A DNA stretch of 64,000 bases. It comes from Candidatus Ryanbacteria bacterium CG10_big_fil_rev_8_21_14_0_10_43_42 (lineage in GTDB: Bacteria > Patescibacteriota > Minisyncoccia > Ryanbacterales > 2-02-FULL-48-12). Below are positions 42,701 through 45,700 of this stretch, in pieces. The position numbers are program-made. Position 1 is the stretch's first letter, and every line of letters starts with the position of its first letter. The stretch is from positions 83,108 through 147,107 of the forward strand of contig PFEF01000005.1 of assembly GCA_002793915.1 (NCBI GenBank), given 5' to 3'.

Positions 42701-45700
42701 AACTATTGGATGCGGGAGAAAAAACAATAAAACCTATTATGGTAAAACCGCAAGGAATTGATGCTACGAGTATTGTGAGCGGATTGGCGGGTGTGTTTTC
42801 CGGTTTTGCACCGCATGTTAATCGAATAGCAATGGAATTTGGTGTAGACCCAAGAGATATATTTGTGGAACTTGGTAAAAGAAATGTTGTTGCTGGTCAG
42901 GAAGATATTATTGTTGACGTTGCAGTGGAGTTATCTAATAAAAAATGAAAGTTGCTGATTACATAATTGATTTTTTTGAGAAAAAAGGCGTTACAAATGC
43001 GTTTGTGGTTGTTGGTGGTCAGGCAATGTTTCTTGATGATGCGGTGTATAGGAGTAAGAAAATTAAGCCGATTTTCACTCATCACGAACAGGCAGCTGGC
43101 ATGGCTGCTGATGCATGTAGTCGGTTAAAAAACAAGCCCGCCATTGCTTTAGTTACAGCTGGTCCCGGAGCTATAAATGTAGTAAATGGTGTGATTGGTG
43201 GATGGGTTGATTCTTCACCCATGATTATTTTATCAGGACAAACAAATTTATCTTTTATCAAATATCAAGAGGAGTCTGGTATTCGGCAGTTTGGTGTGCA
43301 GGGTATCAATGTAAGGCCGTTAGTCGAACGATCAGTTAAATTTTTTGTTACCGTCGATGATCCGAAGAAAATTTTATATTATTTACAAAAGGCATATTAT
43401 CTTGCCACAAGCGGCAGACCCGGACCTGTATGGTTAGATGTACCATTAAATATTCAGGGAGCGCCTGTACCCGATGGTCCTTTATTAGAATTTACGGAAC
43501 AAGTAGATGACGATATCCCGCAGGATATAAACGAAAAACTGAAAGATGCAATGCATTTATTACAGTATGCTAAACGGCCACTTATTTTAGTTGGGCAGGG
43601 CGTACGACTTGGTAATGCTATAGAAGAACTTAATATGTTTATAGACCGTGTTCGTTTGCCGGTCCTTACGGCCCGTTTAGCAATAGATGTAATACAAAGC
43701 AATCATCCGTTATATGTGGGTAGACCTGGTACTTATGGAGAGCGGGCGGCAAATTTTGCCATTCAGAATGCTGATGTAATTTTATCGGTGGGATGTCGGC
43801 TCGGCACATCGTTAATTGGTCATGATGCAAAGGATTTTGGGAGAAATGCAAAAAAGATTGTCATAGATATAGATCAAAAAGAGTTAGATAAACCGGGAGT
43901 TGATATTGCCGTAAAAATACGCACTACAGCTAAAGATTTTTTTCAGAAAGCGCTTGCGGAGTGTGAGGGTTTAAAATTGCCTGATTGGAAAGAATGGATT
44001 TCCATATGTAAAGAATGGAGAAAAACATATCCTGTTGTACTGTCTTCATATAAAGATGAAAAACCCGTTAATTCTTACTATTTTATAGATAGATTATCTG
44101 CCGTTGCTGAAAAGGATGATTGGGTTTTGGTTGATACGGGATCTTGTTTTCATGTGGCATCTCAAGCATGGAGCGTAAAAGATGGTCAGCGATTTTTAAC
44201 GACGGGGGGAATTTCCACTATGGGGTATTGGGTTGCAGGAATTGGTGCTTGCATGGCTCGTGATAAAAAACGGGTAATCGTAATAACAGGAGATGGAAGT
44301 TTGCAAATGAATCTTCAAGAATTTGCGACAGTCAAGCAGAATGAATTACCGTTAAAGGTGTTTATATTTAATAATAACGGCTATTTACTAATGCGGATTA
44401 TGCAGACCAATTTTATGGACAAGCGATTTATGGGTGAAAGCCCGAAAACTGGTTTATGGTGCCCTGATTCATTGAAAATTGCCGAAGCATACGGTATACG
44501 GGGAATAAGAATAGATTCGACTAAGGGGATTGATGAAAAAATTAAAGAGATTCTTGATTATCCAGGTCCGGTCATTTGTGATGTGATGACACCTGATTGG
44601 CAGATTTTAGCGCCCCGCACGATGTCTGATAAGACGCCTGAAGGAAAGTTGGTGGCGCGGCCATATGAAGATATGTATCCGTTTTTAGATCGTGATGAAC
44701 TGAAACGGCAGATGATTGCGGAGTTACCGGATGCATAGTAGTTATGAATATGAAGATATTACTTTTGGGTGGTTCCGGATTTATCGGAAGGAACATTATC
44801 GAATTATTGGGTGAGAAATACGATATCACAGCGCCAACACATCGGGAGTTGGATCTTTTAAATGCGGATGCTGTACAATCATTTTTGAATAAAAAAAGAT
44901 ACGATAGAGTAATTTATGCGGTGAACGTGGGAGGGAAGCGTAACCAAAAGGCACTTACCGGCGTGTATGATGCAAATTACCGTATGTTTTTGAATGTCGC
45001 AGAACAGGGTGAGCGGTTCGGACGCATGATTTTTTTAGGTTCTGGGGCGGAATATGGAAAACAGCGTGATATTGTTATGATAAAAGAGGAAGATTTTGGT
45101 ACCATTCAGCCTCTTGATGATTATGGTAGATCAAAATATTCTATTTCGGAATATATTAATGAACATGAAAATATAATCAATTTGCGGTGTTTCGCAGTTT
45201 TTGGAAAGTACGAGGATTATAAGGTTCGCTTTATTTCGAATGCGATTTGCCGCGCTTTGTTTGGATTACCGATTACTATGCATAGGAATGTGAAATTTGA
45301 CTATCTGTATATTCTTGACTTGGTAAAAATCATAGAATATTTTATTGTCAATCAACCCATGTTAATATTTTATAATGTGGGTTTTGGAAAACCTATTGAG
45401 CTTACGGAACTTGCCCAAATAGTAAAACAAGCAACATTGAACGACGCGCGAATTGAGATAGAGCAGCTAGGGTATAGTAATGAGTATACGTGTGATACAA
45501 GTCAACTGAAAGCGGAAATAGGAGATATGGCGCTCACTTCGTATGAACAAGCGATTAGTGAAATGATCGAATACTATAAGAACATTCTTCCTATTATGCA
45601 ATATAAAGACTTGGAAGAATAATATTTATATATGCATTTTTATGAGTATCAGGGAAAAGAGTTATTTGATGCATATCGTATACCTGCACCGCGTGGCGTG

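Follow-up and report, generated by a model that had tools for sequence, protein, structure and literature searches.

Introduction

How is a carbon branch added to a deoxysugar? In the yersiniose A pathway of Yersinia pseudotuberculosis, the thiamine diphosphate (ThDP)-dependent enzyme YerE (compared here through PpYerE, PDB 5ahk) places an acyl anion from pyruvate onto cytidine diphosphate (CDP)-4-keto-3,6-dideoxyglucose, and YerF then reduces the branch ketone; YerE needs neither an aldolase nor a dehydrogenase beside it. In Pectobacterium atrosepticum SCRI1043, the erwiniose cluster encodes ErwE beside ErwF, ErwI (BphI-like) and ErwJ (BphJ-like): ErwJ and ErwI make (4R)-4-hydroxy-2-oxopentanoate, ErwE links 4-hydroxy-2-oxopentanoate with a ketone that stands in for CDP-4-keto-3,6-dideoxyglucose, and ErwF reduces the branched product (PMC9306805). 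ErwE selects the (4R) acid and rejects pyruvate (PMC9306805). Here we compare with these systems a gene pair, a ThDP enzyme followed by a short-chain dehydrogenase/reductase (SDR), from Candidatus Ryanbacteria bacterium CG10_big_fil_rev_8_21_14_0_10_43_42, a member of the Patescibacteria or candidate phyla radiation (CPR). The pair lies in a stretch of 64,000 nucleotides (assembly GCA_002793915.1, contig PFEF01000005.1, forward-strand positions 83,108 to 147,107), hereafter the window, whose own numbering is used throughout. By analogy with the characterised cluster, the two enzymes probably branch the sugar and then reduce the branch in an acyl-branched deoxysugar pathway of the erwiniose type.

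Several other described systems bear on this comparison. JanthE of Janthinobacterium sp. HH01, a YerE-like enzyme, accepts long donors, 4-hydroxy-2-oxovalerate and pyruvate, and its crystals contain flavin adenine dinucleotide (FAD) (PDB 8rph/8rpi/8rpj). MMAR_2332 (caryophyllose, Mycobacterium marinum) and MyGE (gastriose, M. gastri) follow the same scheme of an aldolase-made hydroxy-keto acid, ThDP-dependent branching and reduction, although their donors are longer and polyhydroxylated and the aldolase MMAR_2331 belongs to the HpcH/citrate-lyase family rather than to that of DmpG. A 2025 review, which covers these related makers of caryophyllose and gastriose, counts more than 200 YerE-like clusters predicted in silico (PMC12247030).

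Results and Discussion

The four Erw gene types in one operon

The ThDP enzyme (42945-44738, + strand, 597 aa) and the SDR (44744-45622, + strand, 292 aa) both begin with ATG, and a check of open reading frames (ORFs) and Pfam domains bore out the original prediction that they follow directly on a DmpFG-like pair, with the SDR next in line. That pair consists of an acylating acetaldehyde dehydrogenase of the DmpF/BphJ/ErwJ type (41066-41947, + strand; TIGR03215, 375 bits, above the cut-off of 282) and a class II pyruvate aldolase of the DmpG/BphI/ErwI type (41938-42948, + strand; TIGR03217, 358 bits, above the cut-off of 286). Packing is tight throughout: the dehydrogenase and aldolase genes overlap by 10 nt, the start of the ThDP gene overlaps the aldolase stop in an ATGA junction, 5 nt separate the ThDP stop from the SDR start, and 9 nt separate the SDR stop from the next gene. 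All of them are part of a longer + strand run (35778-48344) in the order DdhB-like SDR, second SDR, glycosyltransferase family 2 (GT2) enzyme, E1/RfbH-like dehydrase, second GT2 enzyme, DmpF-like, DmpG-like, ThDP enzyme, SDR and a citryl-coenzyme A (CoA) synthetase/lyase trio. The ErwJ, ErwI, ErwE and ErwF gene types are thus all adjacent in one operon, beside CDP-sugar genes.

The likeness to the erwiniose cluster extends to the same four enzyme types together with putative genes for a CDP-4-keto-3,6-dideoxyhexose, and the predicted logic would be the same. The differences lie in gene order (J-I-E-F here as against E-F-J-I in Pectobacterium, judged from consecutive accessions, with ErwE as WP_011093010), in the host (CPR here, a Gram-negative enterobacterium there), in a 3-dehydrase without Fe-S ligands, in the apparent passage of the sugar to polyprenyl-phosphate GT2 enzymes, and in the added citryl-CoA synthetase/lyase. 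A promoter and terminator scan of positions 34000-50000 returned counts equal to the shuffle background; its top promoter-like site (40776-40803, 11/12, ~260 bp upstream of the DmpF-like start) is a consensus match only.

Is the arrangement conserved beyond this organism? With one genome scanned per species, relatives of the ThDP enzyme numbered at least 507; among the 80 best, which are 48-72% identical to it and were examined further, 69 loci were informative, with enough upstream sequence, and 44 were fully flanked (8 kb or more to either side). DmpF, DmpG and ThDP genes followed one another in the same order on one strand in 69/69 informative loci, with a median aldolase-ThDP gap of 62 nt. 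Among the fully flanked loci, RfbH-like and DdhB-like genes each lay near the cassette in 41/44 and RfbF in 35/44, while a PgfS/ArnC-type GT2 was found within 10 kb in 31/44. The hosts of the 80 best relatives are CPR bacteria, Lachnospiraceae and other Bacillota, Gammaproteobacteria, Omnitrophota, Elusimicrobia, the PVC group, Fibrobacter, Spirochaetia and others. On these sequence comparisons, the DmpF-DmpG-ThDP cassette is conserved, moves horizontally and goes with CDP-deoxysugar synthesis; at least 500 species-level genomes from many phyla carry it, the ultra-small CPR bacteria included.

Some loci hold a further ThDP gene. A second paralogue, 31-42% identical to the window protein, lies near the cassette in L010, L022, L028, L029, L036, L058 and L074, directly downstream of it in L010 and L022; six of these paralogues group near JanthE and one with PpYerE.

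A YerE-like ThDP enzyme nearest to JanthE

Which characterised enzyme does the ThDP protein most resemble? Pfam detected all three domains of the acetolactate synthase-like layout that had been proposed for it, TPP_enzyme_N (residues 1-106, 4e-31), TPP_enzyme_M (200-332, 1e-30) and TPP_enzyme_C (397-547, 7e-36), and its catalytic glutamate is E48. The cofactor motif, first described as a perfect GDG-X26-NN, is present, but its spacing is X24 (GDG 449-451, NN 476-477); GDG-X24-NN(N) is still in the canonical range. Its best match in the PDB is JanthE (8rph; 3e-112, 379 bits, residues 1-593 aligned), followed at a distance by PpYerE (243.5 bits, 4e-71) and Escherichia coli acetohydroxyacid synthase (AHAS) I (6lpi; 242.3 bits, 9e-71). 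Comparison of folds gave the same ranking: an AlphaFold model (mean pLDDT 84, pTM 0.87) matched JanthE with a TM score of 0.91 over ~600 columns and AHAS with ~0.83. In a neighbour-joining tree, built without bootstrap support and from few reference sequences, the protein grouped with its DmpFG-linked relatives, and the sister of this group was one of paralogues plus JanthE; PpYerE came next outward, with the E. coli and Arabidopsis AHAS outside. The claim of a YerE/YerF-like branching pair is upheld in that the best match in both sequence and fold is the YerE-like JanthE and that all four Erw gene types are present. Membership of YerE proper is another matter, for the protein is no nearer to PpYerE than to AHAS, and PpYerE falls outside the group that it forms with JanthE.

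Residues that line up with known determinants of AHAS specificity point the same way. Val118 occupies the position of AHAS II Phe109, where the family has Ile or Val and JanthE Val, while PpYerE and AHAS have Phe. Ser289 stands at the position of the acceptor-carboxylate Arg (RFDDR), and Met486 at that of Trp464/574. E. coli IlvB and Arabidopsis AHAS keep the Arg and the Phe, and the Arabidopsis enzyme also the Trp; PpYerE, unlike the window protein, retains both the Phe and the Arg. We take Phe109 of AHAS II to be the residue that restricts the donor to pyruvate, and the RFDDR Arg to be the contact for the acceptor carboxylate. With JanthE the protein further shares the C-terminal tail E-D-x-x-P and Tyr268, a residue that stabilises FAD in JanthE and whose equivalent is conserved in 78/78 family members. 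JanthE P293, Y297, H494 and K567 correspond to S289, H293, I485 and R558 in the window protein. JanthE also has CDG where the window protein and 78/78 relatives have the canonical GDG, so that assignment to a JanthE-type, CDG-motif subclass was excluded. Taken together with its gene partners, the ThDP enzyme is likely to be the YerE-like lyase of an erwiniose-type cluster. Val/Ile118 combined with Ser/Ala289 offers a signature by which long-donor ThDP lyases might be recognised.

A (4R)-type signature in the aldolase

We then turn to the donor. The DmpF-like enzyme has its catalytic Cys in a VTCGGQ motif (residue 128), and the DmpG-like aldolase has the communication domain and keeps the catalytic and metal residues R17, D18, H21, H200 and H202, as do 73-74 of 74 loci. 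In passing the equivalog cut-offs and in retaining these metal and catalytic residues and the dehydrogenase Cys, the pair resembles the catabolic BphI-BphJ and DmpG-DmpF complexes. It differs from them in its predicted synthetic direction and in having Phe/Phe at positions 291 and 88, in which it resembles the engineered (4R)-specific BphI L87W/Y290F more than the (4S)-specific wild type. A catabolic meta-cleavage DmpFG operon was considered and rejected, as the region holds no aromatic-degradation genes and is a glycan island.

The substitutions at those two positions recur across the cassette. Tyr291 is replaced by Phe in the window aldolase and in 74/74 related loci, whereas the PDB homologues 8ih7, 4lrs and 1nvm keep Tyr; Leu88 is Phe in the window, and the 74 loci have F (43), Y (29) or H (2). 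DmpG Tyr291 corresponds to BphI Tyr290, and DmpG Leu88 to BphI Leu87. In BphI, Tyr290 enforces (4S) configuration, the Y290F variant loses stereocontrol, and the double variants L87W/Y290F and L87N/Y290F are (4R)-specific (PMC3962088). The cassette aldolases look, from their sequences, like natural counterparts of the engineered (4R) BphI variants, which suggests a natural (4R)-selective aldolase subfamily. Such a signature would fit the need of ErwE for the (4R) acid, a link of our own that does not appear in the main text of PMC9306805. At the position of BphI Leu89, which gates the length of the aldehyde, the window aldolase has Ile, so a short aldehyde would be favoured. Phe291 with an aromatic residue at 88 could serve as a signature for predicting (4R)-selective natural pyruvate aldolases; both these and long-donor ThDP lyases are wanted as biocatalysts for chiral tertiary alcohols.

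The SDR, the deoxysugar genes and the predicted pathway

The SDR that follows the ThDP gene (PF01370, 1e-28) has the cofactor motif GxxGxxG at residues 9-15 and YxxxK at 127-131, and by analogy is predicted to be a YerF/ErwF-like reductase of the side-chain ketone. In 15 loci the gene immediately after the ThDP gene is an orthologue of this SDR (36-56% identity), and in 22 more it is another extended SDR.

The genes for the sugar itself lie upstream. An RfbF/DdhA-like glucose-1-phosphate cytidylyltransferase (31080-31862, + strand), the predicted maker of CDP-glucose, has its true start at the Met at codon 58 of the listed ORF. It is followed by an Old-Yellow-Enzyme-family NADH:flavin oxidoreductase (31859-32902, - strand), which stands between rfbF and the sugar operon. 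The + strand run opens with an extended SDR resembling DdhB, the CDP-glucose 4,6-dehydratase (35778-36785, + strand; GDP_Man_Dehyd, 1e-53), whose true start may be an internal Met near 35814. Next come a second extended SDR (36800-37765, + strand; Pfam Epimerase, 6e-36), which could be an epimerase, a reductase or dehydratase-like, whose NCBIfam matches are all far below cut-offs and whose identity to proteins of related loci is 21-29%, and a GT2 polyprenyl-phosphate glycosyltransferase of PgfS/ArnC-like type (37767-38726, + strand; Glycos_transf_2, 2e-25; NF047588 PgfS 222 bits and NF007986 ArnC-like 145 bits, both below cut-off). A variant of the E1/RfbH-like, pyridoxamine phosphate-dependent 3-dehydrases follows (38753-39952, + strand). 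Its top PDB match is Yersinia E1 (3bcx, 3e-67), it has His220 in place of the Schiff-base Lys, as in E1 and ColD, and it keeps Cys193. A second GT2 polyprenyl-phosphate glycosyltransferase (39945-40886, + strand; Glycos_transf_2, 2e-29) precedes the DmpF-like gene. Near the cassette of the Ryanbacteria-like loci a NUDIX-domain protein recurs, at 34262-34993 (+) in the window, 7377-7856 (-) in locus L002 and 10359-10892 (+) in L085; it might hydrolyse or proof-read a nucleotide sugar.

How might these enzymes act together? Every substrate and product in the following scheme is predicted from the observed gene identities, gene packing, cassette order and residue signatures. RfbF, the DdhB-like enzyme and the E1-like 3-dehydrase would convert glucose-1-phosphate to CDP-4-keto-3,6-dideoxyhexose, with CDP-4-keto-6-deoxyglucose as the product of the DdhB-like step and the C3 hydroxyl taken off by the dehydrase. 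The DmpF-like enzyme would reduce acetyl-CoA with NADH to acetaldehyde, which the DmpG-like aldolase would join to pyruvate, giving (4R)-4-hydroxy-2-oxopentanoate. The ThDP enzyme would decarboxylate this acid and join the C4 acyl anion so formed to the sugar at its C4 keto group, creating a tertiary alcohol, and the SDR would reduce the side-chain ketone to a CDP-linked 3,6,8-trideoxy-4-C-(1-hydroxyethyl)-octose of the erwiniose type. The GT2 enzymes would finally move the sugar onto polyprenyl phosphate for transfer to a surface glycan. The original prediction had proposed that the donor could be the DmpG product, giving a longer branch than in yersiniose; judged by analogy, this agrees with the published erwiniose scheme and with the unvarying order of the cassette. 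The idea is correct in kind, but it was published for erwiniose in 2022 and is not new.

Alternative explanations

Could the ThDP protein simply be what GenBank calls it, an "acetolactate synthase", that is, a true AHAS large subunit for branched-chain amino-acid synthesis? An AHAS model, TIGR00118, is indeed its best-scoring NCBIfam match, and its overall fold and that of AHAS are alike, but the score reaches only 354 of the 538 bits required, and the remaining AHAS models all (240-338 bits against cut-offs of 738-1084) fall short by more than 400 bits. Genuine ilvB genes are only 28-32% identical to it (tblastn against plasmids, a baseline only, returned nothing but such genes), Ser, Val and Met replace the acceptor Arg, Phe109 and Trp574, and the gene is set in a sugar operon in 80 genomes. 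The missed cut-offs, the replaced residues and the neighbour-joining tree all separate it from IlvB-type acetolactate synthases, and no ilvN, ilvC or ilvD occurs among the ORFs of the 64-kb window, a glycan island; grouping with IlvB and an ilvN/ilvC context elsewhere in the genome were the two findings that the original prediction had named as fatal to it. The annotation is extremely improbable, and correcting it would put right a widespread mis-annotation, as "acetolactate synthases" of this type occur in hundreds of species. A classical YerE/YerF pair, with pyruvate as donor, a yersiniose-type C2 (1-hydroxyethyl) branch and a DmpFG pair that is catabolic or supplies pyruvate, would account for the pairing of a ThDP enzyme with an SDR, and both YerE, the founding member of the family, and JanthE, the nearest solved relative, take pyruvate. 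General pyruvate supply would not, however, need the invariant DmpF-DmpG-ThDP order, and the changed stereo-determinants of the aldolase suggest an enzyme devoted to biosynthesis. Val/Ile takes the place of the Phe by which AHAS and PpYerE are confined to small donors, the protein is as far from PpYerE as from AHAS, and pyruvate is rejected by ErwE, whose gene partners are the same; all of this makes the reading distinctly unlikely. The steps might also run in reversed order, with the ThDP enzyme adding an acetyl branch from pyruvate and the aldolase or dehydrogenase then extending or modifying it, which we regard as very improbable. DmpG-type aldolases act on the free pyruvate enolate and not on nucleotide-sugar ketones, which counts against this order. 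Steitz et al. raised it as a formal possibility, and for ErwE ruled it out experimentally, since pyruvate was not accepted (PMC9306805).

Other observations weigh against the erwiniose-type reading itself, at least in its details. The closest characterised relative, JanthE, is only ~34% identical to the ThDP protein, and the ErwF-like SDR has an orthologue in only 15/44 fully flanked loci. The RfbF-like (TIGR02623, 295.3 bits against 300.25), DdhB-like (TIGR02622, 203 against 278) and RfbH-like (NF011936, 337 against 423) proteins all score below their NCBIfam cut-offs. The 3-dehydrase lacks Cys251, Cys253 and Cys261, three of the four Cys ligands of the E1 [2Fe-2S] cluster. The same three are missing from the dehydrases of L001, L002, L012 and L075, while the set is complete in 55 other loci; and when the window and the 80 loci were searched by motif for a ferredoxin-FNR reductase of the E3/AscD type, none turned up. 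The exact acceptor is uncertain because of the missing Fe-S cysteines and E3 gene, although the absence of E3 is not peculiar to the window, none of the 80 loci having one either; a ColD-like, reductase-independent route of 3-deoxygenation is plausible from the sequence. In the ThDP enzyme, the near-invariant RHTQ of the family (His in 55/78, Thr in 77/78) is replaced by RIMQ (residues 484-487), and by RL(T/S/A)Q in its closest relatives, L001, L002, L081 and L085. The family's His corresponds to His494 of JanthE, which lies at the active-site cleft, so the change in this CPR sub-clade may mark a shift in substrate range, and donor or acceptor could differ in detail from those of ErwE. The branch could, moreover, be one carbon longer, as BphI-type aldolases also accept propanal: BphI takes it besides acetaldehyde (PMC3962088), and with ErwE the conversion of the C6 acid (76%) exceeds that of the C5 acid (49%; PMC9306805). 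These last points, with the altered cleft residue and the dehydrase without Fe-S ligands or E3, would be explained if the same chemistry ran on other substrates, such as 4-hydroxy-2-oxohexanoate (derived from propanal/propionyl-CoA) or another 4-hydroxy-2-oxo acid as donor, or a 4-keto-6-deoxy sugar with its C3 hydroxyl in place as acceptor, to give a new branched sugar. We consider this unlikely, however, because the BphI Leu89 equivalent is Ile, which is not smaller and favours short aldehydes, the dehydrase keeps His220, the hallmark of a 3-dehydrase, and the co-transcribed citryl-CoA lyase yields acetyl-CoA, which indicates acetaldehyde.

A citryl-CoA synthetase/lyase trio in the branching operon

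What could supply the acetyl-CoA that the DmpF-like step would consume? After the SDR the operon holds three genes, all on the + strand: the large (beta-like) subunit of citryl-CoA synthetase (45632-46708; ATP-grasp_2 and Citrate_bind domains), the small, succinyl-CoA-synthetase-alpha-like subunit (46711-47619; CoA_binding and Ligase_CoA domains; NF004230, 282 bits, below the cut-off of 336), in which a GHAG phosphohistidine motif is visible, and citryl-CoA lyase (47619-48344; NF004869, 272 bits, above the cut-off of 212). The large subunit has its best PDB match in the citryl-CoA synthetase large subunit of Hydrogenobacter thermophilus (6hxq_B, 3e-41), and the lyase matches that of the same organism over its full length (6hxp, 4e-70). 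The lyase score, the citrate-binding domain and the alpha-like subunit together mark a two-step citrate cleavage, in which the lyase splits citryl-CoA into acetyl-CoA and oxaloacetate. The three-protein set is the same as in Hydrogenobacter, where it works in the reverse tricarboxylic acid (TCA) cycle; here it stands in a CPR sugar-branching operon, and its large subunit is ~70 residues shorter.

Homologues of the trio are common in Parcubacteria and occur in two types of context. Those with at least 63% identity are embedded in the branching operon, on five contigs including the window and in two arrangements: after the SDR in the window (45632-48344, +), L081 (5594-8312) and L082, and flanked by the ThDP gene on one side and the SDR on the other in L002 (11806-14505) and L085 (6679-9387). 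Only in this lineage does the trio sit inside the operon. Those with at most 57% identity (L083, L084, L086 and L087) lie in housekeeping contexts, with a GNAT acetyltransferase gene following them directly in 2/4; a CofD-domain gene lies near the trio in L084. The two context types suggest a general role in acetyl-CoA supply, coupled here to the acetyl-CoA-consuming DmpF-like step, and in this lineage the trio probably supplies acetyl-CoA for the branching operon. Our literature search found no paper tying citryl-CoA enzymes to Patescibacteria, and the embedded trio offers a testable source of acetyl-CoA in Parcubacteria. Oxaloacetate decarboxylation is a reported side activity of BphI, and an organism of this kind probably lacks a TCA cycle. 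We put forward only tentatively, as a doubtful but possible extension, that the trio, the DmpF-like enzyme and the aldolase (converting oxaloacetate to pyruvate and joining it to the acetaldehyde) could draw all five donor carbons from one citrate, and that the short trio would, more widely, be the general source of acetyl-CoA in Parcubacteria.

The surrounding glycan island

The operon is part of one long glycan-biosynthesis island (~500-54300 of the window) with many glycosyltransferases and methyltransferases, a flippase and a priming phosphotransferase. Among its genes are three PMT_2 enzymes of the GT-C class (1274-2752, 23135-24484 and 29710-31083), a sulfatase-family protein (15215-16744), a sulfotransferase (16790-17710, - strand), Gmd (19831-20829), a fused methyltransferase-GT2 (21729-23135) and a NodU-like carbamoyltransferase (25257-27068). 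Two tandem Wzy_C+TPR proteins of ~740 aa each (49857-54304) lie beyond the citryl-CoA trio, and farther downstream is a protein with an F420-0:gamma-glutamyl ligase domain (61532-62434, + strand; PF01996, 4e-35).

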